Shown here piece after piece: positions 2,809 to 32,000 of a DNA stretch of 32,000 bases. A program made the translations under genes and the position numbers. This DNA is from Nanobdella aerobiophila (GTDB lineage Archaea > Nanobdellota > Nanobdellia > Nanobdellales > Nanobdellaceae), in NCBI RefSeq assembly GCF_023169545.1, contig NZ_AP019769.1, positions 600,001 to 632,000 on the forward strand, written 5' to 3'. Numbering within the stretch: the first letter of the stretch is position 1; every line of letters starts with the position of its first letter. A model generated the notes under the pieces. The model was not told the origin of the DNA and searched no databases. It saw only the letters and a list, made by a program, of their open reading frames with translations.

Positions 2809-3399
2809 ATGATAAATAAAAAATATATAATAATATTATCTGGTATAATATCTATAATAATTACAATAATATTAATATTACAAAATAATATGTATAATCA
2901 AGAACTTACAATAAAAATAAATAATAATAATTTAACATTATATAAATTAAATTTATATTATGAAGGATGTTATAATCTAACCATAAAAAATGGATATTTT
3001 ATAATATATCCTATAAGTTCTGCAGTTAATTTTTCTATGCCTACATACAATTATTTAAATACAACAAATATAATATATTGCAACGAAGATATATCATATA
3101 ATATAACAACAAATTTCTGCTCACCAATTGCCTGTCCAACTATATGTACTACAAATGGTTGTGTCAAATGCAACTATTGTAATAATTTTACATATTACAT
3201 AAATATAAACTATCCGATAATAATCGGAGAAAATAATGATTATATATCTAGTTCATCTATAGGAAATATAGTAATACTTAAATATGATAATAATGTATAT
3301 TCAACAAATAATGATATAATAATTAATAATATAGATAATAATTCAATATATTATATTATTAGCTTATATATAAATGATATAAAGAAGATTATTGTATGA
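2809..3399 (+). CDS. Hypothetical N-terminally membrane-anchored, Asn/Ile-rich, Cys-cluster protein
   Basis: The N-terminal TM segment is IIILSGIISIIITIILIL. Many N-x-S/T sequons follow, plus a cysteine cluster CSPIACPTICTTNGCVKCNYC. The stop overlaps the next start (ATGA at 3396-3399). I recognise no family. Confidence 0.55.
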   Translation: MINKKYIIILSGIISIIITIILILQNNMYNQELTIKINNNNLTLYKLNLYYEGCYNLTIKNGYFIIYPISSAVNFSMPTYNYLNTTNIIYCNEDISYNITTNFCSPIACPTICTTNGCVKCNYCNNFTYYININYPIIIGENNDYISSSSIGNIVILKYDNNVYSTNNDIIINNIDNNSIYYIISLYINDIKKIIV

Positions 3400-4739: not shown

Positions 4740-6638
4740 TTATTCTTCTATCTTCTCTTTCTTATTTCCACCTCTTCCTCTTGATTCTAATAATACTGCA
4801 GCTATTATTATTATCGCAACTGCTACTAATATCCAAAATACTATCGATTCTAAATTATATGTAGGTGTTATTAATTGTTCTCCCGTCGAAGTATATGTTT
4901 GATTTAATGAATATAATATCTCTCCATTATTTGCATTTATTACATCTACATAAACTGTTACATTTCCAGATTCTGCTGTTACATTTAATGGTATTGTCTC
5001 TGAATATGTTCCACCTATTTGTACATTTTCTTCCTTTGGATATACTTTTCCACCTACTGCATATGATTGTATTATTAAATTATATATTGATGTTGTATTT
5101 GCTGTTAGTATCAGGTCTATTGTTGTATTCTGACCAACTGATAATGGTTGGTATGCTTCTAAAGATGCTGATATTGGAGTATATACAGGTACTGATCCAT
5201 TTACATATATATTATATGGATATACTTCTTGTGCTCCATTATACAAGAATACAATATTTAATGGATAATAACCTGCCTGTAGATTATTTGGTATATATAT
5301 TACCACTGGCAATTGCTCTACTTGATTTGGAGATAATGTAATTGTTGATAATTGCTGATTTATATTTAATTCTTCTGATTGTATCATTGGGGTTACCTGT
5401 ACTTCCATTGGCAAACTATCTTGTAATTGTATTTGCAATTGTACATATGATCCTGGTAGTATATTATATGTATTTGGTTCTACTGATATTACATTAACTG
5501 GATTTATTGAATTTTGATCTATTGCTACAGTATAATTATATTGATTTACTACAACTCCATTTTGATATAAATATAATATTATATTGTAATATCCTGGACT
5601 TAATTCTTCTGTATTTAATGGCAATGTTATCTCAGATTGTTGACCTGGTTGTACATCTTGTGAATTCATTAAATTATATTCTAGATATCCATATTCATTA
5701 TATAATAATAATTGTACTGTTGCATTTACAGTTTGATATCCTGAATTCTGTAATAATAAATTTATATCATATATTGAGTTTCCTAATGATTGCAATGAAT
5801 TAAAGTTTGGCGATATTGATAATACCTGTAAATTTTCTCCATTTTCATTATTCGATATATAGAATGATTGTTCTGCTACTTGGTTTAATACCTGACCATT
5901 ATCCAATACTACAGTTAATTGTTCTTCTGCATATAGTTGTCCATATATATTTTGTAGATCATAGTTTGGAACATTTATTGTCAATAAATTCTCTCCCGGC
6001 TGTAATTGTACATCTTCCTGTGTCTGATATACAATACTACCATCTTGACCATATAATGTCAGTGTCAATGTAGCTGATTGTATATTTGTCCCTATATTTT
6101 GTAGATAAGATACTGACTGTATATTTAATCCATTTTCAGATGCTTGTACTGATGATATTACTTCTGGTAAATTTACCATCGATAATGTAAAATTATATGG
6201 TACAAATGTAATATTATAACTTTCCTGACCTGTAGCTATATCTTCAACTCCATTAGAATATATTAATGATACATTTGCCTCTACTGTGAAATTATTGTAT
6301 CCATTAGAATATTCTTGAACTAACTGCTGTAATTGTAAAGGATTTACAGATATATCATATATATTTAATCCTGTTCCTACAGTTACTGGCTCATAATATT
6401 GATACACTAATTGTCCATTTGGTGCAAATATATCAAAATATAGGTATGATTCTACTGGTACCTGATTCACTCCTAATAACTTTACTATAAATGTCATATT
6501 ATTCATAGAATTTGCCAATAATGTCTGCGTCTGTGGTTCTATTATTATTTCCTGCGAATATACTGCTAATCCTACTATCCCTAATGCTCCTAAAACAAAA
6601 GAAAGCTTCTTAAGTGTTGTCACTAGTCGATTATTCAT
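4740..6638 (-). CDS. Large cell-surface protein (S-layer/adhesin candidate) with tandem CARDB-like beta-sandwich repeats and a C-terminal TM anchor
   Basis: The N-terminal signal/TM is LSFVLGALGIVGLAVYS. The C-terminal TM IVFWILVAVAIIIIAAVLL is followed by a basic tail, RGRGGNKKEK. About five roughly 100-aa modules rich in N/Q/Y/V show CARDB-like endings (for example GQQSEITLPLNTEELSPGYYNIILYLYQNG and GTYSETIPLNVTAESGNVTVYVDV). There are many N-x-S/T sequons. Confidence 0.7.
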   Translation of the reverse strand: MNNRLVTTLKKLSFVLGALGIVGLAVYSQEIIIEPQTQTLLANSMNNMTFIVKLLGVNQVPVESYLYFDIFAPNGQLVYQYYEPVTVGTGLNIYDISVNPLQLQQLVQEYSNGYNNFTVEANVSLIYSNGVEDIATGQESYNITFVPYNFTLSMVNLPEVISSVQASENGLNIQSVSYLQNIGTNIQSATLTLTLYGQDGSIVYQTQEDVQLQPGENLLTINVPNYDLQNIYGQLYAEEQLTVVLDNGQVLNQVAEQSFYISNNENGENLQVLSISPNFNSLQSLGNSIYDINLLLQNSGYQTVNATVQLLLYNEYGYLEYNLMNSQDVQPGQQSEITLPLNTEELSPGYYNIILYLYQNGVVVNQYNYTVAIDQNSINPVNVISVEPNTYNILPGSYVQLQIQLQDSLPMEVQVTPMIQSEELNINQQLSTITLSPNQVEQLPVVIYIPNNLQAGYYPLNIVFLYNGAQEVYPYNIYVNGSVPVYTPISASLEAYQPLSVGQNTTIDLILTANTTSIYNLIIQSYAVGGKVYPKEENVQIGGTYSETIPLNVTAESGNVTVYVDVINANNGEILYSLNQTYTSTGEQLITPTYNLESIVFWILVAVAIIIIAAVLLESRGRGGNKKEKIEE

Positions 6639-8315: not shown

Positions 8316-8519
8316 ATGGTAAAAATAAAGATAAACAGAGATTTATGTATAGGATCAGCAGCTTGTGTTGCAGCATGTCCAGAAATATTCTATCTAGACA
8401 ATGATGGAAAGGTTGCATTAAAATCGGACAATGTTGATGAAAATAAAGATCCTGAACTAGCAGAAAAAGTAAAAGATGCTGCACAGTCCTGTCCAACAGG
8501 AGTAATATCCTTAGAGTGA
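8316..8519 (+). CDS. Mono-cluster ferredoxin (Pyrococcus Fd-like), paralog 1; Ser at the second ligand position
   Basis: The motif is CIGSAACVAACP ... SCPTGVI, that is C11-x2-S14-x2-C17-x3-C21P plus a distal CP. The numbering is the same as I recall for P. furiosus ferredoxin, which has Asp14 at that position. Confidence 0.85.
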   Translation: MVKIKINRDLCIGSAACVAACPEIFYLDNDGKVALKSDNVDENKDPELAEKVKDAAQSCPTGVISLE

Positions 8520-8710
8520 GAGTTAGAGTAGATAAAAATACATGTATAGGGTGCGGTACATGTATTGCCATAGCTCCAGAAATTTTTGATTTTGATAAAG
8601 ATGGGAAATCAATAAACAAAATAGAGGAGATAGAAGATGAAAAGTTGATAGAAGAAGCCAGAGATTCTAAAATTGCCTGTCCAACAGGATCTATATTTTT
8701 GGATGAGTAA
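8516..8710 (+). CDS. Mono-cluster [4Fe-4S] ferredoxin, paralog 2
   Basis: The motif is CIGCGTC ... ACPTGSI (CxxCxxC...CP). The GTG start overlaps the stop of paralog 1 (GTGA at 8516-8519). Confidence 0.85.
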   Translation: MRVRVDKNTCIGCGTCIAIAPEIFDFDKDGKSINKIEEIEDEKLIEEARDSKIACPTGSIFLDE

Positions 8711-8909
8711 ATATTTTATAGATATAGATTATAATAAATGTATAAATTGTTTAGCATGCTATTTAATAGATAAAGACGATTTTGATATAGTCAATAATAG
8801 AATAAAAATCAAGAACAGGTTCATATCAGATGATAAATCGATAAATAATGTAAAAAAAGCTTCTGAAGCTTGTCCTGTCAATGCTATATATTATGAAGAA
8901 ATTTCTTGA
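8703..8909 (+). CDS. Mono-cluster [4Fe-4S] ferredoxin, paralog 3
   Basis: The motif is CINCLAC ... ACPVNAI. I prefer the in-frame ATG at 8703 (MSKYFIDIDYNKC...), which overlaps the paralog 2 stop by 8 nt, over the track start at 8673. It gives the same spacing from N-terminus to first Cys as the other two paralogs. Confidence 0.8.
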   Translation: MSKYFIDIDYNKCINCLACYLIDKDDFDIVNNRIKIKNRFISDDKSINNVKKASEACPVNAIYYEEIS

Positions 8910-8951: not shown

Positions 8952-9530
8952 ATGGTATTTTATAATATATTTATAACATTATTAACAAATATTGGATTCT
9001 TTAATATTATAGTTCCTTTTTTACTAGTTTATGCTGTAATGTATGGATTATTATCTAATTATAAAATAATAGGAGATCCATTCAAAGATGATCCTTCTGG
9101 AAAAGCAGTAAGGAGTATAATATCCATGATTGCTGCAGCTACTGGCTTTTTGGTTGTAGGAGCTGCAAATATTGTATTATCCTTAAATCAATTGATTCCA
9201 TATATAGTTTTATTTATATTAACTGTATTCTTCTTACTAATTGCTATATCTCCATTAGTATCAAAAGACGGAAAGATAGACCTAGATAAGAATACTAAAA
9301 GATTATTAGTTATAATAGCTGTTATAATATTTTCTATAGTATTAATATTTTCACTAGGACTCGTAAATTATTTAATGTCTATAGGAAAAGCAATTAGTAA
9401 CAACTCATTACCACCAGAGATAATAAACTTTATAGAAACAATAGTAATATTATTAATAATGTTTGGAATTGTATTCTTTACAATAAGAACTCCAAAGGCA
9501 AAAGAAGAAAAGAAGGATAATAGTAAATAA
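8952..9530 (+). CDS. Uncharacterized polytopic membrane protein, paralog 1 of 3
   Basis: It opens with IGFFNIIVPFLLVYAVMYGLL, has about 4-5 TM segments, and ends in a Lys/Glu tail, RTPKAKEEKKDNSK. It shares this architecture with the next two ORFs. Confidence 0.7.
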   Translation: MVFYNIFITLLTNIGFFNIIVPFLLVYAVMYGLLSNYKIIGDPFKDDPSGKAVRSIISMIAAATGFLVVGAANIVLSLNQLIPYIVLFILTVFFLLIAISPLVSKDGKIDLDKNTKRLLVIIAVIIFSIVLIFSLGLVNYLMSIGKAISNNSLPPEIINFIETIVILLIMFGIVFFTIRTPKAKEEKKDNSK

Positions 9531-10099
9531 TGATAGACTTTACTTCTTTGTTGAGTCAATATGGGATTTTCGATGTTATATTACCTTTTTTATTAATATT
9601 TTCCATAGTATTTATGGTTTTAGAATTAGCTGGACTATTAAAAACAGGTCCGGATGATGAAGTTGGTAGGAGACTAAATGCCTTATTTGCATTATCATTT
9701 GCACTACTATCTATAGGAAATCAAAACCTAATACAATGGTTATTATCTTTTATTCCAAATGCATCTGTTGCAGTATTGGGTTTTTTCCTATTGGCAATGG
9801 TAATAAGTATAAGTAATAAAAAGGTTCCAGGCTTCTTTAGGGCAATACTAGGACTTTTGGTGATAGGAATAATACTCTGGCTAGCATTGAATGCGCTGGA
9901 ACTTACTCCAAATGCAGGAGGAAGCTCTATTTCAGGAGCTCTAAATTATATAATATCCTACTTAATTAATTCAGGATTATTAGCAATATTAATAATATTT
10001 GTTTTATTAGGAATAACTATATTTTGGTTAGTATCTCCAAGTAAAAAGGAAGATAAAAAAGAAGAAGGTACACAGGTAATTCCATTATTGAGTAAATAA
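9530..10099 (+). CDS. Uncharacterized polytopic membrane protein, paralog 2 of 3
   Basis: It opens with YGIFDVILPFLLIFSIVFMVL. The late motif is YLINSGLLAILIIFVLLGITIFWLVSPSKKEDKKEE. There is a 1-nt start/stop overlap (TAATG) with paralog 1. Confidence 0.7.
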   Translation: MIDFTSLLSQYGIFDVILPFLLIFSIVFMVLELAGLLKTGPDDEVGRRLNALFALSFALLSIGNQNLIQWLLSFIPNASVAVLGFFLLAMVISISNKKVPGFFRAILGLLVIGIILWLALNALELTPNAGGSSISGALNYIISYLINSGLLAILIIFVLLGITIFWLVSPSKKEDKKEEGTQVIPLLSK

Positions 10100-10100
10100 A

Positions 10101-10763
10101 ATGGATCTAGGATCATATATATATTTATTATTCTCAGAATATGGAATATTTACAATAGTAGCTCCTTTCTTATTAATATTTTCATTATTATATGGACTAT
10201 TAAGGAAAACAGGCCTATTTGGTAAAGACAATCCAAATAAGGAGAGATTATATGCAATAATATCTATAGCCTTATCTTTTTATTATTTATATAATTTAGG
10301 CGCAGTAATATTTACTCAAGACTTTATATCATTCTTCTTCTTTGAATTCTTAGTATTGTTCTTTATATTGATGATTATTGGTTTACTAGCCTCAATATCA
10401 CAAGGTTTTCAACCTAAAGAGGAAGAAAAAGGATTATATAATAAATACAAAAACTCTGCATATAATTCTTTGGTTGGTATACTAGGACTATTGGTATTAT
10501 TTGCATTTATGTATGCATCATCATTCTCATTTACATCATTCGGTGCAGGAGCATCAAATATACTGTACTCCATATTTTCATTCTTAATAAATACAGGACT
10601 ATTACCATTAATAATTATATTTGGAGTTTTATTTGGAATAATTGGTTGGTTAGTAAGGACTCCAAATAAAAGTCCCAATAAGAGAAAGATTAATCCAAAA
10701 TTATTATTGATATCTGCTGGTGAAGCTCCTTATCAATTTTTTGATGAAGTATCAAAAAAATAA
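10101..10763 (+). CDS. Uncharacterized polytopic membrane protein, paralog 3 of 3
   Basis: It opens with YGIFTIVAPFLLIFSLLYGLL. The late motif is FLINTGLLPLIIIFGVLFGIIGWLVRTPNKSPNKRK. It starts 1 nt after the paralog 2 stop. Confidence 0.7.
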   Translation: MDLGSYIYLLFSEYGIFTIVAPFLLIFSLLYGLLRKTGLFGKDNPNKERLYAIISIALSFYYLYNLGAVIFTQDFISFFFFEFLVLFFILMIIGLLASISQGFQPKEEEKGLYNKYKNSAYNSLVGILGLLVLFAFMYASSFSFTSFGAGASNILYSIFSFLINTGLLPLIIIFGVLFGIIGWLVRTPNKSPNKRKINPKLLLISAGEAPYQFFDEVSKK

Positions 10764-10792
10764 AATAAAAATTTTAATTATATATTAATTTT

Positions 10793-11896
10793 ATGGTAAA
10801 GTTTATAACTGGAGATCATGAAATAAAAAATATTGTAGGAGATATATACAGAGGAGAAGATATCATAATAACAGATAAAAAAGGAAAATATCTAGGTATA
10901 TTATCAAATGAGAAAGCATTAAGATATTTAAATAAACCAAATACAAAAATAGATAAATTAATTATAAAAATAAAACCAATAGACGGGGATATTACATATA
11001 TAATAGAGAAGATGATAGGATCAAATACAAGATTGATACCAGTAAAAAAAGGTGATAAAATAGAAATTATGAACATTTTTGATTTATTAAATAATATATA
11101 TAATGATAAAAACACATTAAGGAATATAAAAATAGAAGATATAAAAAATAATGCTTATACAATATATGAGAATGACAATATAAATAAAGCAATAAACATA
11201 ATGAAAGAAAATGGTATTTCTAGATTAATAGTTATAAATAATGAAAATAAACCTGTAGGTATTCTAACCATATCTGATATATTAAGAAAATTGTTAATAC
11301 AAAATAATGAAGAAATAAGGGTACCTAAAGATGAAGACTTCGATATAAAGATAAAATCCATAATAAAAAATAACCTAATATTTGCAAGCAAAAAAGATAG
11401 TATAGAAAATATTATAGAATTATTAGTAAAAAATAAAATATTTTCAGTACCTATATTGGATGAAAAAAATAATTTATATGGTATAGTAACAGCAAAAGAT
11501 ATATTAATAGCATACTTACAAAATAAAAAAGAAAAAAAATATAATATAGTAATAAGTGGTATAGATTTGGATGAAATAGATCAAAAATATATAAAAAATG
11601 AATATGAAAGGTTTAATAAAAAATACAGTAATATACTAGGAAATATAAAAATAATAATACATGTAAAAAAGATTAATGAAAATATAAAAGATAAAAAAAT
11701 ATTCTATAGTATAAAAGCAAGATTAATTTCTGATAAGTTAAGATTTTATGTACAAAATAATGGATATGATTTCTATTCAACAATAAATGATATATTTCAT
11801 ATATTATCAAATGAAGCAGAAAAATATAAACATAAAGATGAAAGAGAATATCTACTGCAAAGAATGTTTAAGGATGATATAATAAGATATATATAA
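10793..11896 (+). CDS. Four-CBS-domain (two Bateman modules) protein with a C-terminal HPF/RaiA (ribosomal S30AE)-like domain
   Basis: The CBS-like units end in GILSNEKALRYL, IEIMNIFDLLNNI, VGILTISDILRKLL and YGIVTAKDILIAYL. C-terminal residues about 250-350 (YNIVISGIDLDEIDQKYIKNEYERFNKKYSNILGNIKIIIHVKK...YSIKARLISDKLRFYVQNNGYDFYSTINDIFHILSNEAEKYKHKD) align by eye with E. coli HPF (MQLNITGNNVEITEALREFVTAKFAKLEQYFDRINQVYVVLKVEK...DMYAAIDGLIDKLARQLTKHKDK). Confidence 0.7.
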   Translation: MVKFITGDHEIKNIVGDIYRGEDIIITDKKGKYLGILSNEKALRYLNKPNTKIDKLIIKIKPIDGDITYIIEKMIGSNTRLIPVKKGDKIEIMNIFDLLNNIYNDKNTLRNIKIEDIKNNAYTIYENDNINKAINIMKENGISRLIVINNENKPVGILTISDILRKLLIQNNEEIRVPKDEDFDIKIKSIIKNNLIFASKKDSIENIIELLVKNKIFSVPILDEKNNLYGIVTAKDILIAYLQNKKEKKYNIVISGIDLDEIDQKYIKNEYERFNKKYSNILGNIKIIIHVKKINENIKDKKIFYSIKARLISDKLRFYVQNNGYDFYSTINDIFHILSNEAEKYKHKDEREYLLQRMFKDDIIRYI

Positions 11897-11897
11897 A

Positions 11898-12500
11898 ATG
11901 ATATTATTACCCGGAGATAAGTTAAATAATAAAAATATATATAGTTATGATATAAATGATGAGTTTTTTTCTAAATATATATTATTATCAAATGATAATA
12001 TAAAGTATAATAAAATATTTGGATATTATATACCAAAAATAGGAGATGTAGTTATATCAAAAGTAATAGATGTGTTAAGCAATGGATGGTTGCTAGATAT
12101 AAATTCTCCATACCTAGGATTCCTACAATTAAAAAATGTTGTACAAAAGGATATAGACCATAATAAAATATATACATATGGAGATTATATATTAACAGAA
12201 ATTACAAAGATAACTAAAAACATGATGATTAATTTAAACTTAAAAAATAGGAAAAAACTAAATAATGGATTAATTATAAGTATAGATCCGATAAAATTAC
12301 CAAGACTAATAGGTAAAAACTCTTCAATGATAAATATGATAAAGGAAAAATTAAATATAAAAATTATAACCGGAAAAAATGGTAGATTATACTTATCGGG
12401 TGATTATGCAAACATAATAAAAGCTTATAATGTAATTAAATTTATTATGAAAAATTCATATAAAAAAGGCCTAACAGAAAAGATAAATGAAATTATATAA
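11898..12500 (+). CDS. rrp4: Exosome RNA-binding subunit Rrp4 (S1 + KH domains)
   Basis: The S1 segment is PKIGDVVISKVIDVLSNGWLLDINSPYLGFL. The KH segment is LPRLIGKNSSMINMIKEKLNIKIITGKNGRLYLSG. It lies immediately upstream of, and overlaps, rrp41, as in archaeal exosome operons. Confidence 0.8.
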   Translation: MILLPGDKLNNKNIYSYDINDEFFSKYILLSNDNIKYNKIFGYYIPKIGDVVISKVIDVLSNGWLLDINSPYLGFLQLKNVVQKDIDHNKIYTYGDYILTEITKITKNMMINLNLKNRKKLNNGLIISIDPIKLPRLIGKNSSMINMIKEKLNIKIITGKNGRLYLSGDYANIIKAYNVIKFIMKNSYKKGLTEKINEII

Positions 12501-21008: not shown

Positions 21009-21055
21009 AGCGGTCATACTTCTTGGGTTAAAGCCCACGGTGGTGATCCACCGAA

Positions 21056-22536
<1,481 letters not shown>

Positions 22537-22543
22537 TAGTTAA

Positions 22544-24316: not shown

Positions 24317-24727
24317 ATGTCTGAATTCATGCTAAGAGGATATAAAATTGATGAATTAAGAAATATGTCCATTAAAGAATTTGCTGAGAAAGTTGCAGAT
24401 AGTAGAGTAAGAAGAACATTATTAAGAAGATTAAAATTGGGTTTTCCAGTAGAATGGGAGAACTTTTACAGAAAATGCTATTTACAAAAAGAAGGTAAAT
24501 ATAAGAAAACTGTTAGAACACACGCAAGAGAAATAATAATATTACCATTTATGCTAGGAACAAGAATAGGCGTACATAATGGAAAAGAATTTGTAGAATT
24601 AGAAATAAAAGAAAATATGATAGGAAGAAGAGTGGGAGAATTCGTATTTACAACAAAGAAAGTTCAACATTCCAATCCAGGTATTGGTGCTTCTAAATCT
24701 TCTAGATTTATGAAAGCTAAAAAGTAA
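24317..24727 (+). CDS. rps19: Ribosomal protein S19 (uS19)
   Basis: Contains VRTHAREIIILPFMLGTRIGVHNGKEFVELEIKENMIGRRVGEFVFTTKKVQHSNPGIGASKSSRF, the classic uS19 core (RTH.R..II.P.M.G..IGV.NGK.F..V.I...MIG..LGEF). Confidence 0.92.
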   Translation: MSEFMLRGYKIDELRNMSIKEFAEKVADSRVRRTLLRRLKLGFPVEWENFYRKCYLQKEGKYKKTVRTHAREIIILPFMLGTRIGVHNGKEFVELEIKENMIGRRVGEFVFTTKKVQHSNPGIGASKSSRFMKAKK

Positions 24728-24729
24728 AA

Positions 24730-26244
24730 TTACCTTTTTAGGCTTTTTATTGTATATTTATTGAAAAATATCTTATATAATTTTAGTCTATATGGCAATG
24801 TATTTAAGAAAGGTATCCATGGTAGTAATGCTAATAATATGAAGAATCCTAATCCTGCTATACCTGTATATAATGTATGCCACCATGGTATATGATCTCC
24901 TATTATCTCTATTGCGTCTAAATAAAATAACCAATAGGAGCCTATTTGATATTCTTCCACATTAAATTTAATCATACCAAAATAATACTCATGTAACTTA
25001 TACTCTGAACCTTCTATATTATGTATTAGAGACATATCTGCAAGTAATCTATCTGTATATGTATAATCTAGAGGAGAATTATAAGGAGACTCACTTAATA
25101 ATATATCATCATATAATCCTGTTCTCCCCATCAAAACTAAAGATGCGATTACTTTTTCAAAATAATTATTGGAGTTTAAAGCAGAATAAATATTGCCATT
25201 GTCCTCAAAATATGTATATGCTGAATTTATTTGTTCTTCTTGCAATGTATAGTTTTCTGATTGGAATATAGATAAATAATTAGTTTCATTTAATGAATTT
25301 ACAAGAATATTATAAGGATACTCTACATAAACATATCTAGTATTAATTTCATAAGGATTTGTAGATAAATTATAAGGATTATAATATCCTAGAGGAGAAA
25401 ATTTTGAATATGTTGCAGTTCCAGATGTATAATTATATTCTTGAATTAAAGTAACTGCTAATAAATTTGGATAATTCTTTGCTGCATATTGTATATTTAA
25501 TTGCTCTATTTGCGGATAATACCATAAAGGTCCTAGAATAACTCCAAGAGCGATTATTAATCCTCCTATTAAACCCGCTCTAATAAACAATTTCTTATGA
25601 TCTGCTTTCACAATATTGTATTTAACATATTTTTTATCTATATTTGAAATTCCCCTCTTAGTTTCTAATAATATATGTATACCAATTAATAATGTTAATA
25701 TAATAGGAACAACTGCAATATGCCAACCATACAAAGCACCGTAATTTTCAGGATTTATAAAATATAAATAAAAAGAGTTCCATAATCCAGCACCACTCTT
25801 ATCATTATATTGAGCAACTATATTATAATTTAATCCTAATCCAAAGGCATATTGAATAGAAGCAACAAAAAATATTACCACACCTAAAACCCACATATCC
25901 TTTCTTCTTAAATGAGCTCCTGTAAAATACATTGTAATACCATGGATTATCATTAGAGTCATAAAAATTTCTGCAGCCCAGAAATGTATTTGAGATATTA
26001 ATACACCCCACCATGTAAAATTCCACCAAAATGGACCAAATATAACCATTATTACACCAGTTATTATTAAAATAATTAATGCAACAACCATAAAGATTCC
26101 TGTTTGAAAGAAGAATGAATTTCCATATTCTGGCAAATTTTCTATATAAAAAGACTCAAATATTTCTTTTAAATCTTTTAAAGTCTGATTTTTATTTATA
26201 ATATCTTTTACGAAATTCGATCTCATAAAAAATAGTATAAACAA
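24730..26244 (-). CDS. Cytochrome b (bc1/b6 N-terminal domain)-like four-helix, four-His membrane protein with a large Tyr/Asn-rich extracytoplasmic domain and a C-terminal TM
   Basis: NLPEYGNSFFFQTGIFMVVALIILIITGV...ISQIHFWAAEIFMTLMIIHGITMYFTGAHLRRKDMWVLGVVIFFVASIQYAFG...YGWHIAVVPIILTLLIGIHILLETKRG aligns by eye with bovine cytochrome b ([56 protein letters not shown]...[28 protein letters not shown]). The His pairs are H87/H101 (spacing 14) and H175/H190 (spacing 15, b6-like). Confidence 0.65.
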   Translation of the reverse strand: MFILFFMRSNFVKDIINKNQTLKDLKEIFESFYIENLPEYGNSFFFQTGIFMVVALIILIITGVIMVIFGPFWWNFTWWGVLISQIHFWAAEIFMTLMIIHGITMYFTGAHLRRKDMWVLGVVIFFVASIQYAFGLGLNYNIVAQYNDKSGAGLWNSFYLYFINPENYGALYGWHIAVVPIILTLLIGIHILLETKRGISNIDKKYVKYNIVKADHKKLFIRAGLIGGLIIALGVILGPLWYYPQIEQLNIQYAAKNYPNLLAVTLIQEYNYTSGTATYSKFSPLGYYNPYNLSTNPYEINTRYVYVEYPYNILVNSLNETNYLSIFQSENYTLQEEQINSAYTYFEDNGNIYSALNSNNYFEKVIASLVLMGRTGLYDDILLSESPYNSPLDYTYTDRLLADMSLIHNIEGSEYKLHEYYFGMIKFNVEEYQIGSYWLFYLDAIEIIGDHIPWWHTLYTGIAGLGFFILLALLPWIPFLNTLPYRLKLYKIFFNKYTIKSLKR

Positions 26245-26276
26245 AAATTTTATAAGATAAAAAGATTATTACACCG

Positions 26277-27095
26277 TTATATATTTATCAAAAAAGATCC
26301 TTTTGGAGTTATAGGAATTATTATATCAAATAATATTAATGTAGCTATTAAAAATATCAATATATACTTTGCTCCTGCTCTATAAGAATCATTATACATT
26401 TTTCCCATAGCCAAGCCAGCAAATATACCCTGTATTATAGATAAATTATACATTAAATTTGTTATATAATTTGTATTTATAGTACTCGTCTGACCCGGCA
26501 AACTTATTGATAAAAAAGGTAACAAAAATACTTGAAATGTAAATATTATACCTAAGAAAAACATGAATACTAGATATGAATCTATTATATTTTCGTGCAT
26601 TTCTGCTCTTTTAGATTCTTTTATTTTTCTAACCTCTACTAAACTATTTATAACAGCTTCCAGGCCTTTTTCTAAATTTCCACCGCTTTTATATATATCT
26701 ATTAAAGACTTTATTGTTCTTCTTATTGTTGAATTATTACTTTCTTCTCCAAACTCCATTAAAGAGTCTTCTATACTTATACCCCAATCTATTCTTGCTG
26801 ATAGATTTTTTAATAATTCATTTATTACACCATAATCATTATTTTCTAATTGTTTCAAAGATAATGGCAATGATAATCCTGATTTTAACAAATCCATTAA
26901 ATCTAATGAAAATCTAATGAATTGCTCCTCTTTTTGCATTTCTATCCTATTATTAATTTCTTGATATATTAGATATGGAAATATACCAAAAACTACGCCT
27001 GTAATTATGGCTTTGGATATATTAAAGTCCAATAAAAGACCAAACATTAATATTAATCCTATAATTAATATTATAGTAATTATCTCAAATCTCAT
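26277..27095 (-). CDS. Type IV pilus/archaellum platform protein, FlaJ/TadC-like, second (C-terminal) T2SS-F half
   Basis: One T2SS-F-type domain is present (FIRFSLDLMDLLKSGLSLPLSLKQL...IRRTIKSLIDIYKSGGNLEKGLEAVINSL), flanked by TM segments. The start overlaps the upstream half-gene stop (ATGA at 27092-27095). Confidence 0.75.
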   Translation of the reverse strand: MRFEIITIILIIGLILMFGLLLDFNISKAIITGVVFGIFPYLIYQEINNRIEMQKEEQFIRFSLDLMDLLKSGLSLPLSLKQLENNDYGVINELLKNLSARIDWGISIEDSLMEFGEESNNSTIRRTIKSLIDIYKSGGNLEKGLEAVINSLVEVRKIKESKRAEMHENIIDSYLVFMFFLGIIFTFQVFLLPFLSISLPGQTSTINTNYITNLMYNLSIIQGIFAGLAMGKMYNDSYRAGAKYILIFLIATLILFDIIIPITPKGSFLINI

Positions 27096-28471
27096 TCTGA
27101 AGATATTTTACTAAATGCAACTATAAAGCCTATATTTATCAATGGTAGCCCTACATAAACCATTAGGTCTAATAATCCAGATATATTTGTGTTATATGTT
27201 TGCTGTATTATTGACATTAACATCACTCCAATAGATAGTATTATCATCGGTAATGTTAATACCATACCTACATATAAATCTGAAAAGGTCTTTGCAGCCT
27301 GCCCCTCTTTTTTCAATAGATTATTATATCTTATCATTTCCTGGGTAGAATATAACATTAGAAATTCTGATATTTTTCTCCCAGACCTTATTGTTAATAT
27401 AAATTCTTCTAAAAAGTCTTTTAATTCTTTTGATGGTGTCTCTTCAGCAACAGACTTTAGTGCATCAGTCAGGCTTTCTCCAATATTTATCCTTTCTATT
27501 ATCTTACCGATCTCCTTAGATAGATATCTATATTCTTCGGTTTCTGCTATCAATTTAAATATTTCTTTTGGTTCTATTCCTGCCTCTGCCAAAGAAGCCA
27601 TATGTATAATTACAAATGGTAGATTTCTATCTATATCATGTTTTATACTATTTTTCCTATATTCTAAATAATAATATGGTATTATTGTTATTACAAATAT
27701 GAAAAATAGCCCATAGAAGAAAAATATTATATTCTCAAGATATATTGTAATTAATAATAAAGATATAAATATTATGAATATTATGAATATAAAAAATGAT
27801 ACAAAAGCTTCTGGAGATATATTATAATATGTTTGACTCATATATGATTTTAATCTATAATATAATCTATGATTCCTATCCAATATATAACTTGATAGTT
27901 TTCCAAATATTTTAAATGATATATCAAATATCAATAATTTTAATTCATTGAAATAATCTACATTTTCTGTCTTTCTGTATATTTTCAGTTTTATCTTTTC
28001 TTTCTTTTCTTTTTTATTCTTTTTAAATAATACATCTTGGGCTTCAAAATATTTTTTGTCTAAGTATATACGGTTATTTTTGAATATTTTAGGAAAATAT
28101 TGGTCTATTTTATTCTGGAAATTAGTGTATTGATTGTAATATTGCTCTATCTTCGTATTTTCATCTTCCGTTTTTTGTTCCATAGTTTTTAAAAAAGATA
28201 TCATCTTATTAGCTTCATTTAAGTATTCTAATAAATTATATAATATCTTATATTTTCTATTATTCAATAATTTGATTTTTTCATTTATCTTATTATTTAA
28301 TCTATTATATTCTTTTTGATCTAGGTATCCTTTATCATACATATGATAGAAATGCTTTTTCCATTTCTTGCTTTTCCTTATCTCTTTTATTATAATTTCA
28401 AGTCTATTTATCTCCCTTTTTATCTTTTCAATATAATTATCAAGTTCTACCAATATCTCTTTATTTATCAT
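27092..28471 (-). CDS. FlaJ/TadB-like platform protein, first T2SS-F half, with a roughly 170-200 aa N-terminal coiled-coil extension
   Basis: The T2SS-F domain is DIDRNLPFVIIHMASLAEAGIEPKEIFKLIAE...LKDFLEEFILTIRSGRKISEFL, with TM segments on both sides. The N-terminal third is a Lys/Glu/Asn-rich predicted coiled coil. Confidence 0.75.
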   Translation of the reverse strand: MINKEILVELDNYIEKIKREINRLEIIIKEIRKSKKWKKHFYHMYDKGYLDQKEYNRLNNKINEKIKLLNNRKYKILYNLLEYLNEANKMISFLKTMEQKTEDENTKIEQYYNQYTNFQNKIDQYFPKIFKNNRIYLDKKYFEAQDVLFKKNKKEKKEKIKLKIYRKTENVDYFNELKLLIFDISFKIFGKLSSYILDRNHRLYYRLKSYMSQTYYNISPEAFVSFFIFIIFIIFISLLLITIYLENIIFFFYGLFFIFVITIIPYYYLEYRKNSIKHDIDRNLPFVIIHMASLAEAGIEPKEIFKLIAETEEYRYLSKEIGKIIERINIGESLTDALKSVAEETPSKELKDFLEEFILTIRSGRKISEFLMLYSTQEMIRYNNLLKKEGQAAKTFSDLYVGMVLTLPMIILSIGVMLMSIIQQTYNTNISGLLDLMVYVGLPLINIGFIVAFSKISSE

Positions 28472-30017: not shown

Positions 30018-32000
30018 GGGTTCGAGTAGATTATATAGCTTCACGGGATATTCAGATAGTCAGCTGAACTCCTTTACGGAGCTTACACTGCTATCTTAAC
30101 GGATCTTCTATCCGAGCCCTTAATGGCTGTCTATTTTCAAGGAAGGCTTCACCCTTAGATGCTTTCAGGGCTTATCCTTCAGGGTGTGGCTACCGGGCCT
30201 GCCCTTTTCGGACAACCCGTAAACTAGAGACCCCGATCCACCGTTCCTTTCGTACTAGGTGGACCTTTCCCTCAGACAGCCGACACTTCCGACAGTTATA
30301 ACCGAGCTGCCTCGCGGCGCTCTAAACCCATCTCACGATCTCCTTTAATGGGTGGGCACCCCCACCCTTGGCGGCTTCTGCACCACCAGGATGGAGAGAG
30401 ACGACATCGATGTCGCAAACCGCGGGGTCAATAGGGGCTCTCGCCCGCGACGGCGCTGTTACCCCCGGAGTAGCTTTTTCGCCAGCCCATACCCCCACCA
30501 AAGGGAGTATGGGGTTCGCTAGGCCCAGGTTTCCCTCCTGTATCCCTTGATGGTCAGGATACAGCCAGGCTAGCTTTTGGCCTTGTCCTCTACAGCGGAT
30601 TTCTAACCCGCTTGAGCTAACCATATGGACCCTGCCGATATCTTTTCGGCAAGGTGCCGCCCCAGCCAAACTGTCCACCTGCTGATGTTCCCTTTCGGGT
30701 CAGCCTTAAAAGATTTGGAGGTGGGTGTTTCATCGTCGCATCTTTCTTACCTAGCGGCAAGAATTCATAGCTCCCCACTACACTACACACCAAATCTTTC
30801 AAGGCAACAGCAAGCTACAGTTAAGCTTCACGGGGTCTTTTTTACCCATCGGAAGTCCCTGGCTTTCTCACCAGGATGGCTTTTCAGGAGGTACCAGCCC
30901 GGGACAGTGGCGGACTAGTTACGTCGTTCGCAAAGCCGGCAATTAACCGGCAAGGCATTACGCTACCTTAAGAGGGTCAGAGTTACCCCCGCCGTTTACC
31001 GGTCCTTAGCTCCCTTGAACGGGAGGTTCAGATACCGACACTGAGCAGACGTCACCCCCAGTACACATCCTTTCGGACTAGCTGGGAGCTATGTCTTTAA
31101 TAAACAGTCCGCCCGCCCTTGTAACTGCGACCTGCAGTACTATGTACCGCAGGCATCCCTTATCCCAAAGTTACGGGACCATTTTGCCGAGTTCCCTGGA
31201 CTGGTTTAACCTCACGGCCTTAGGCTGTTCACCCAGAGGACCAATACTGGATTGCGGTACGATCGTTCGGAATCGCATCTTTTTCCTTTTCATTGCTAGA
31301 AGGCCTCGGCAGAACCTTTCGGCCCGTCAGGATTTAAGCTGGTTCTCATCATGACGATACTCCCCAGCTTTATCTCCCTTAGTATGATAGGTAGATTTTA
31401 CTCTACCCTCATATCTGCCTAGCCCTCTAGGTCGGAAAAAGAAGTTGCGTCACCGCATCTATCCGAACGGTAGAGGAATATTAACCTCTTTCCCTTTCTC
31501 CGAATCCCTCTCGGGAATCGGATTAGGATCGACTAACCCCAAGCTGATCTTCATAGCTTGGGAAACCTTTCCCCCTTCGGCCAATAGGATTCTCACCTAT
31601 CTCATTCTTACTACCGCAGAGATCTTCATTCTCAACGGCTCCAGGTTTCCTTTCAGAAACCCTTCTAGGCCATTGAGACGCCCACCTACCTCACGCCGGA
31701 CAATGTCCAGCGGACTAAGGTCTCGGCAGCCAACTTAGACCCGTCCGTTTGCGGAGCCTATCTCCTCGCCAGGTGAGTTGTTACACACTCCTTAGATGAT
31801 AGCCACTATTGGGCCCACATCCCTGGTGTCTTAGGAAATAGACTCCTTCTAAATCTATTAGCTGGCATTTTGGGGCCTTAACCTTAGTCTCGGTTGTTCC
31901 CGTCTCGGAATTGCGGATTTCCCGCAATCCCCTGCTCCCAGATAAAGGACCTTACAGCTTCGGAGTTGGACTCTATATGGGAATCCCATATAAAATCCGT
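30018..32000 (-). rRNA. rrl: 23S ribosomal RNA, 3' roughly two-thirds (5' part lies beyond the window end)
   Basis: The reverse complement contains CCUGAAAGCAUCUAAG (near the 3' end), the sarcin-ricin loop AGUACGAAAGGAAC, the PTC strand GGGGGUAACAGCG, GACAUCGAUGUCG, and H69-H71 GGUAAACGGCGGGGGUAACUCUGACCCUCUUAAGGUAGCG. It is GC-rich. The 3' end is approximate to about 15 nt. Confidence 0.95.

Follow-up and report, generated by a model that had tools for sequence, protein, structure and literature searches.

In the 32,000-nucleotide (nt) stretch of the Nanobdella aerobiophila genome analysed here (contig NZ_AP019769.1, positions 600,001 to 632,000; hereafter the window, in whose numbering all positions are given), a gene for a cytochrome b-like membrane protein stands between the two half genes of a FlaJ-like pilus platform protein and the gene for ribosomal protein S19. 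N. aerobiophila is a cultivated thermoacidophilic ectosymbiont of Metallosphaera sedula, and its complete genome comprises 668,961 base pairs (bp). As a whole, the observations described below are best explained by a cytochrome b of the b6 type that holds two haems and stands on its own, there being no sign of a Rieske partner, and that was horizontally acquired and is probably linked to quinone – a reading that we consider likely. The gene and the parts of its product are laid out as follows:

24730-26244, minus strand: cytochrome b-like open reading frame (ORF), 504 amino acids (aa) from TTG 26244, stop codon at 24730-24732.
25645-26142, minus strand: b6-type four-helix domain with two predicted haem sites (helices A-D, residues ~35-200), delimited by PF13631, PDB matches, Foldseek and invariance in the family.
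25510-25644, minus strand: basic cytoplasmic loop between helices D and E, and fifth helix (residues ~201-245), from hydropathy, the family alignment and a model helix at 210-231 (P0001 numbering).
24880-25509, minus strand: predicted outward-facing all-helical domain of ~210 aa (residues 246-455), from alignments and models.
24733-24879, minus strand: last transmembrane helix (456-486) and conserved basic cytoplasmic tail LKLYKIFFNKYTIKSLKR, from hydropathy and alignment.

The likely true start of the gene, which is also the one used in GenBank, is ATG 26226, six codons past the TTG, giving a protein of 498 aa. The ORF product matches the GenBank protein “cytochrome b6 [Nanobdella aerobiophila]” at 100% identity, and this name shows that its identity as a cytochrome b was already known; what goes beyond that record is that the gene was inserted singly in N. 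aerobiophila and in none of its sequenced relatives, and that it belongs to an uncharacterised, Rieske-less family. With a guanine-plus-cytosine (GC) content of 26%, the gene does not stand out from its neighbours (window ~25%).

A hydropathy scan finds six transmembrane-like segments (41-78, 82-101, 116-140, 168-197, 218-245 and 456-486), the fifth of which is the positional equivalent of cytochrome b helix E. Lys and Arg are enriched in the B-C loop, in the D-E loop – where archaeal members of the family conserve VKADH(K/R)K – and in the C-terminal tail. The fifth and sixth segments are separated by 210 aa that are rich in Tyr (13.8%) and Asn (10.5%) and include four of the six N-x-S/T sequons of the whole protein. 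This distribution fits the standard cytochrome b topology, with the N-terminus inside and the large domain predicted to lie outside; hydropathy, composition and sequons accordingly agree with the first-pass annotation of the window, which had proposed a fifth transmembrane helix followed by a Tyr/Asn-rich outward domain and a final helix.

By sequence and predicted fold, the protein is a cytochrome b. Residues 93-244 match the Pfam family PF13631 (Cytochrom_B_N_2) with 39.8 bits against a gathering cut-off of 27 (E = 5.9e-10), and all homologues carry the same precomputed Pfam match. A phmmer search of PDB sequences returns QcrB and b6 chains, with E values down to 2e-7 and the histidines of the query aligned on known ligands; the sole other match, to photosystem II protein Z, is marginal (E 0.18). 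In a pairwise alignment to a cytochrome b6 sequence, His87, His101, His175 and His190 fall on His86, His100, His187 and His202, and Gly121 and Gly135 on residues of the same numbers. An AlphaFold model built with 19 homologues has a mean predicted local distance difference test (pLDDT) score of 72.8, rising to 82-91 in the transmembrane helices. When this model was used as a Foldseek query against the PDB, the top 50 matches were all bc1 or bcc cytochromes b, with probabilities of 0.98-1.00, at TM-scores of just ~0.35 because the C-terminal half differs.

Helix B carries His87 and His101, and helix D carries His175 and His190 (504-aa numbering), at spacings of 14 and 15. Among 88 family members (36 archaeal and 52 bacterial, 22-54% identical), all four histidines and five glycines (Gly49, 63, 70, 121 and 135) are invariant without exception; Gly49/63 on helix A and Gly121/135 on helix C form two pairs, each 14 residues apart, which, by analogy with bc1 and b6f structures, we take to be haem contacts. 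Sequence and model thus agree on two complete predicted bis-His sites in a b6-type bundle. In these respects the first-pass annotation, made by eye, has stood up well: it had described a four-helix cytochrome b N-terminal domain at residues ~35-200 with all four bis-haem histidines in place and the b6/Bacillus-type spacing, to which the b6-like domain end K(Q/R)GIS can be added, and the profile search and comparison of orthologues that it had suggested yielded a cytochrome b relationship and invariant histidines. Its view that such a protein is unexpected in nanoarchaea holds only in part. Related nanoarchaeal genomes are indeed described as lacking respiration and cofactor synthesis (PMC11420986), but GenBank already calls this product cytochrome b6, cytochrome bd has been reported from nanoarchaea, and orphan cytochromes b occur in ARMAN-type DPANN archaea.

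The gene entered its present position as a lineage-specific insertion between the FlaJ C-terminal half gene (FlaJ-C) and the S19 gene, a locus made up of the following elements:

24728-26276, no strand assigned: inserted 1549-nt segment, delimited by synteny and junction sequences and absent from this site in three related genomes.
26248-26255, minus strand: TATA-like box TTATAAAA, a putative promoter of the gene's own, at -29 to -22 from ATG 26226.
26277-27095, minus strand: FlaJ/T2SSF C-terminal half gene, 272 aa (PF00482), a neighbour outside the cytochrome system.
27092-28471, minus strand: FlaJ/T2SSF N-terminal half gene (FlaJ-N), 459 aa (PF00482, ArlJ/UpsF NCBIfam matches), also a neighbour.
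24317-24727, plus strand: ribosomal protein S19 gene (PF00203), convergent with the cytochrome gene, the stop codons of the two lying 2 nt apart.

The three related loci – those of strain YN1, Nanopusillus acidilobi and a Nanopusillaceae metagenome-assembled genome (MAG) – have the same gene order as the window (ATPase, FlaJ-N, FlaJ-C, convergent S19, a 165-aa ORF and TGT, with the TGT and ATPase genes not called in N. acidilobi). The FlaJ-C orthologues of YN1, N. acidilobi and Nanopusillaceae MAGs are 69-75% identical to that of N. aerobiophila, and in the three loci the stop codons of FlaJ-C and S19 lie 2-5 nt apart, with no cytochrome gene between them. The 1549-nt segment found there in N. 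aerobiophila contains the cytochrome b gene alone, together with 32-50 nt upstream: FlaJ-C lies 32 nt away when measured from the TTG, as the first-pass annotation had stated, and 50 nt away when measured from the ATG; both of the halves that it had called FlaJ-like proved to be of T2SSF/ArlJ type. Because FlaJ-C and S19 abut in the relatives and a TATA-like box stands upstream of the cytochrome gene, we regard the gene as a lineage-specific insertion that is probably transcribed from its own promoter. The same box precedes S19, fdx1 (the first ferredoxin gene), orf443 and orf632 at the same distance, and a run of five T residues lies after the FlaJ-C stop codon (~26259-26263).

Two further observations concern the same locus. 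The FlaJ/T2SSF platform gene consists of two ORFs (459 and 272 aa) with a 4-nt overlap, and the same split (459-461 and 274 aa) recurs in YN1, N. acidilobi and the Nanopusillaceae MAG; since it is conserved in three relatives, it represents an old fission rather than a sequencing error. The cytochrome gene is flanked by an imperfect 23-nt direct repeat (24750-24772 and 26277-26299) and bracketed by a 24-nt inverted repeat (24769-24792 and 26236-26259). We rejected these as the signature of a mobile element, as equal or better repeats turned up in 24 of 60 (direct) and 6 of 60 (inverted) Markov-shuffled sequences, and they probably arose by chance.

Protein searches found no homologue in YN1, Nanopusillus or other Nanobdellaceae, though their proteins are in the database, and an exact-pattern scan of JGI metagenomes found no close nanoarchaeal orthologue; the N. 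aerobiophila protein is alone in its 50% cluster. A scan with a profile of the clade recovered 34 loci, all of 36-60% GC and at most 54% identical. The nearest relatives, at 51-54% identity, lie on contigs of 40-60% GC among ordinary crenarchaeal neighbours; the clusters that they represent contain Acidilobus saccharovorans ADL19893.1, Acidilobus sp. 7A (the host of Nanopusillus acidilobi) and hot-spring MAGs labelled Thermoproteati or Nitrososphaeria. The wider family extends to acidophilic DPANN archaea, Actinomycetota and Saccharibacteria. Sixteen homologues (P0002-P0017) are full-length and co-linear with the query (coverage 95-98%, identity 37-53%), with similarity spanning helix E, the outer-domain motif, the last transmembrane helix and the basic tail, and the family alignment has 42 invariant columns spread over both halves.

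In a neighbour-joining tree, the Nanobdella protein is sister to the clade of Acidilobus, Thermoproteati and Nitrososphaeria-MAG proteins (bootstrap 100/100), apart from the Micrarchaeota/Parvarchaeota clade (35-42% identity) and from the bacterial one (~23%). We infer a horizontal transfer into N. aerobiophila from a Thermoproteota lineage such as those parasitised by its relatives, and the most economical reading is that the acquisition was old and was followed by amelioration under purifying selection.

That the gene might instead be a decaying or functionless remnant of such a transfer, or the product of a haem-free repurposing of the fold, is unlikely. In favour of this view, no other copy is known from Nanobdellaceae, the branch is long and the nearest relatives share just ~52% identity; against it, the 1.5-kb ORF is intact in a genome of 25% GC, its composition is fully ameliorated, every family-invariant residue is kept, and so are 71% of the positions that do not vary in the sister clade, to the same extent in both domains. 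Haem-free repurposing, which the first-pass annotation had left as a possibility, is unlikely in particular because the ligands are kept in every orthologue examined.

The GenBank name implies a different alternative, namely a conventional Rieske/cytochrome b complex (bc1- or b6f-like) in which the protein serves as the cytochrome b and whose other subunits are encoded elsewhere in the genome. The b6-like N-terminal domain, with its 14/15 spacing and KRGIS end, would suit this, and the best NCBIfam match is indeed the cytochrome b6 model. Yet the NCBIfam matches – to cytochrome b6, actinobacterial QcrB and ExtP – are all weak and far under the cut-offs (NF002990, 32.7 bits against 325; NF050120, 31.3 bits against 500). 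Moreover, the protein lacks the classical C-terminal domain of cytochrome b (subunit IV): there is no match to PF00032 and no PEWY Qo-site motif, the sequence before the last helix reading IPWWH, which is not conserved. As the whole protein is free of Cys, b6-type attachment of haem c_n is impossible. Across ~120 family loci, no Rieske gene adjoins the cytochrome gene, and respiration is described as absent from the genomes of related nanoarchaea (PMC11420986). We therefore give a conventional complex little credence.

Past helix D, the protein follows an order of its own: a basic loop, helix E, a domain of ~210 aa, one helix and a conserved basic tail. The outer domain is conserved over its entire length, with the motif E-x-N-x-[ST]-S-G-T-A-T-Y ... 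P-Y, and is modelled as all-helical, with a core pLDDT of 91-97. It has no match in Pfam, none of meaning among PDB sequences (the best, at E = 0.017, is to an unrelated adhesin) and none among PDB folds by Foldseek (best E = 4.1). An exhaustive profile search with the outer domain alone collected 429 representative proteins, many of them of ~320-345 aa with the domain beginning near residue 45, which suggests that these short members are stand-alone proteins consisting of a helix, the domain and a further helix.

The relation between the two halves is illuminated by five loci of Acidimicrobiia, in which the gene is split past helix D into two ORFs overlapping by 4 nt. In each of these loci, at ~9,000-12,300 in its own numbering, a b6-like gene is accompanied by a gene of 329-563 aa for the helix, outer domain and helix. 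The halves are fused in Actinomycetes, Saccharibacteria and all archaea. As the split point in Acidimicrobiia is exactly that between b6 and subunit IV, the halves form one functional unit in which the second stands in for subunit IV; by sequence and predicted fold, the outward-facing domain is functionally coupled to the b6-type bundle. Together, cytochrome b and helical outer domain define a distinct, uncharacterised family.

The genes beside the family members offer a circumstantial guide to function. No universal partner emerged from the ~120 loci, the recurrent neighbours being lineage-specific. At Parvarchaeota-type loci and several Micrarchaeota loci, a gene for an HxlR-family regulator lies immediately upstream; counted together, 14 loci of acidophilic DPANN have such a winged-helix regulator of 116-138 aa just ahead of the cytochrome gene and on its strand. 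Parvarchaeota-type loci continue with the gene for a DUF981 membrane protein and have aldo-keto reductase and isochorismatase-family genes close by, and HxlR, cytochrome and DUF981 may form a small regulon of redox-stress type. A 212-aa membrane protein beside some Micrarchaeota copies was considered as a further DUF981 member and rejected, there being no detectable relation.

At Acidilobus-type loci, a gene of the vitamin K epoxide reductase (VKOR) family lies ~250-390 nt upstream (at 9252-9746 and 5578-6063 in the numbering of two of the contigs), so that the genes closest to that of Nanobdella have a further quinone-dependent membrane protein encoded beside them. At loci of the “Nitrososphaeria” type, the cytochrome gene is preceded by UbiA and PNPOx-like genes and followed by ArsR/HxlR regulators. 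Actinomycetota copies are often near a GAF-GAF-HisKA_3 kinase, a response regulator, nitroreductase-family and PNPOx-like proteins and a Zn-dependent dehydrogenase; over eight such loci, a sensor kinase with DevS/DosT-like domain order, a response regulator, a nitroreductase-family protein and PNPOx-like proteins recur within ~3 kb upstream. The actinobacterial neighbours hint at hypoxia- or redox-regulated expression, and the theme that recurs across lineages, circumstantial as it is, is that of quinone, electrophile and redox-stress chemistry.

How might such a protein work? On the known cytochrome b fold, two b haems would be stacked across the membrane, and electrons would pass between a cytoplasm-side site and a site on the outer face, the latter possibly formed by the C-D loop together with the conserved beginning of the outer domain. 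On one side, the most likely partner would be the membrane quinone pool, as in Rieske-less dihaem cytochromes b. Both haem and quinone would be supplied by the host, M. sedula, since quinone synthesis is reported to be lacking in terrestrial Nanoarchaeota (PMC6142677) and cofactor synthesis in general in related nanoarchaeal genomes (PMC11420986). There is precedent for such dependence: a cytochrome bd oxidase that needs haem and quinol is reported from terrestrial Nanoarchaeota, which do not synthesise quinone (PMC6142677), and the cytochrome bd of Mia14 (PMC5498576), like that of terrestrial Nanoarchaeota (PMC6142677), has been explained by the use of host quinol and haem.

A bolder version of this mechanism, which we offer as a speculative possibility, sees in the protein a single-gene redox module taken from a host-type crenarchaeon and loaded with host haem and quinone, which would move electrons, and with them charge, across the membrane of the nanoarchaeon at or near the contact site, with the helical outer domain as a new extracytoplasmic electron-exit or substrate site replacing the Rieske/Qo half. 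If true, this would give an ectosymbiont a minimal, one-protein route for tapping the redox pool of its host.

Several points weigh against a self-contained, horizontally acquired cytochrome of this kind. Haem binding is deduced from sequence alone. In the outer domain, neither Cys nor His is conserved, which leaves no obvious cofactor site through which electrons might exit. The search for a Rieske gene in N. aerobiophila, which found none, covered the 32 kb of the window, and a Rieske protein, cytochrome bd or a haem-uptake system may be encoded elsewhere in the genome. In the tree, the Nanobdella protein branches beside the Thermoproteota clade and not inside it, at ~52% identity, so that the direction and age of the transfer are judged mainly from the absence of the gene in three relatives and from the clean insertion. 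Finally, the gene could also be transcribed by read-through from the FlaJ genes.

The same protein could be imagined to handle haem rather than to use it, capturing, storing or importing host haem for an auxotroph, with the outer domain as receptor. DPANN archaea that have haem proteins and no haem synthesis do need haem from outside (PMC5498576), and four conserved haem ligands and a large surface domain could serve such a purpose. The family is, however, widespread in Actinomycetota, the invariant Gly and His residues form the pattern typical of bis-His haems that are tightly bound and transfer electrons, and sibling Nanobdellaceae, with the same need for haem, do without the gene. Actinomycetota, for their part, normally synthesise their own haem. 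On balance, a haem-handling role seems improbable.

Least probable of all is that the protein is a true accessory subunit of the type IV pilus/FlaJ platform – for example, one linking pilus assembly where the host is contacted with redox state or membrane potential – as the first-pass annotation had implied in calling the gene the third of a pilus-platform operon: it does lie on the same strand as the FlaJ-like halves, 32-50 nt downstream of FlaJ-C and within reach of read-through, but the locus is conserved without it in three related genomes, no pilus or FlaJ gene adjoins any of the ~120 other family loci, and it has a TATA-like box of its own past the T-run that follows the FlaJ-C stop codon, from which we infer that the cytochrome b is not a pilus component.

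Other features of the window deserve a brief mention. Three tandem, overlapping ferredoxin ORFs on the plus strand (8316-8519, 8516-8710 and 8673-8909) encode proteins of 67, 64 and 78 aa with four Cys each, the third matching the single-cluster families Fer4_13/Fer4_15; three successive paralogues are many for a 0.67-Mb genome said to lack most metabolism. A CDGSH-type ORF on the minus strand (2594-2770, 58 aa), with the iron-sulfur motif C-x-C-...-C-D-G-H-H, is flanked by the gene for elongation factor 2 (EF-2) and by a Cys-/Asn-rich membrane or secreted ORF of 196 aa (2809-3399). The three ferredoxin ORFs and the CDGSH-like ORF listed in the first-pass annotation are thus all present. The archaeal 16S (21055-22543, plus strand) and 23S (30031-32000, minus strand) ribosomal RNA genes are unlinked, ~7.5 kb apart with protein genes between them, and ARAGORN found no tRNA gene in the 32 kb.

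These findings matter at more than one level. In the region examined, the cytochrome gene is the only one that separates N. aerobiophila from its sequenced siblings, and it provides a clean case, dated by synteny, of a gene that is also found in the phylum of the host. Should the protein bind haem, N. aerobiophila must obtain haem, and probably quinone too, from Metallosphaera, which would support the idea of “cofactor piracy” raised for cytochrome bd in other nanoarchaea. The protein also defines a family of Rieske-less cytochromes b whose outer domain is novel and whose halves may be fused or split; it comprises ~430 representative clusters, and genome papers have filed it under “bc1 complex”. 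As N. aerobiophila is among the few DPANN archaea in stable co-culture, the protein is open to experiment.

Compared with known systems, the closest structural counterparts are cytochrome b6 (PetB) of the b6f complex and QcrB of the bc/bcc complexes of Firmicutes and Actinobacteria. Common to them and the Nanobdella protein are the four-helix bundle, the His spacing of 14/15, the glycine pairs that contact haem on helices A and C, at a spacing of 14, a Y-x-T-G-...-basic loop past helix B and the domain end K(Q/R)GIS (KRGIS in Nanobdella), and some bacterial members of the family are likewise split past helix D. Unlike them, the Nanobdella protein has no nearby Rieske gene, no subunit IV/PF00032, no PEWY and no Cys for haem c_n, having instead helix E, a helical outer domain of ~210 aa without a PDB match and an extra helix, and it scores ten-fold under the NCBIfam family cut-offs.

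Within the family itself, the Acidilobus proteins (A. saccharovorans ADL19893.1 and Acidilobus sp. 7A WP_158543129.1) and the homologues from Thermoproteati/“Nitrososphaeria” MAGs share the full-length architecture at 51-54% identity, but belong to free-living Thermoproteota with genomes of 40-60% GC and have VKOR, UbiA, PNPOx-like and HxlR genes as neighbours; in the literature searched, we found no experimental characterisation of these homologues and no discussion of the Nanobdella protein. The orphan “cytochrome bc1” of ARMAN-type DPANN (Micrarchaeota/Parvarchaeota, e.g. ARMAN-4) has the same architecture at 35-42% identity and is likewise found in small symbiotic archaea, yet forms a separate clade, usually stands behind an HxlR-family regulator and occurs in organisms that have kept much more metabolism. 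These genomes are annotated with a “bc1 complex”, the iron-sulfur (Rieske) subunit of which is absent from most of them (Chen et al., PMC5864196).

Two further groups resemble the Nanobdella protein in its presumed role, the first of them serving as a working analogy only: in NarI, FdnI, MsrQ, CybB and archaeal NarC, two bis-His haems link the quinone pool to a reaction on the opposite side of the membrane. All five are dihaem membrane cytochromes b and need no Rieske protein for their work. Of these, NarI, FdnI, MsrQ and CybB belong to other folds or families than the Nanobdella protein. The second group, cytochrome bd-I of terrestrial Nanoarchaeota and Mia14, is again an unrelated family, and one whose acceptor (O2) is known; like the Nanobdella protein as we read it, however, it sits in the membrane of an ectosymbiont and depends on haem and quinol, neither of which the organism can make.

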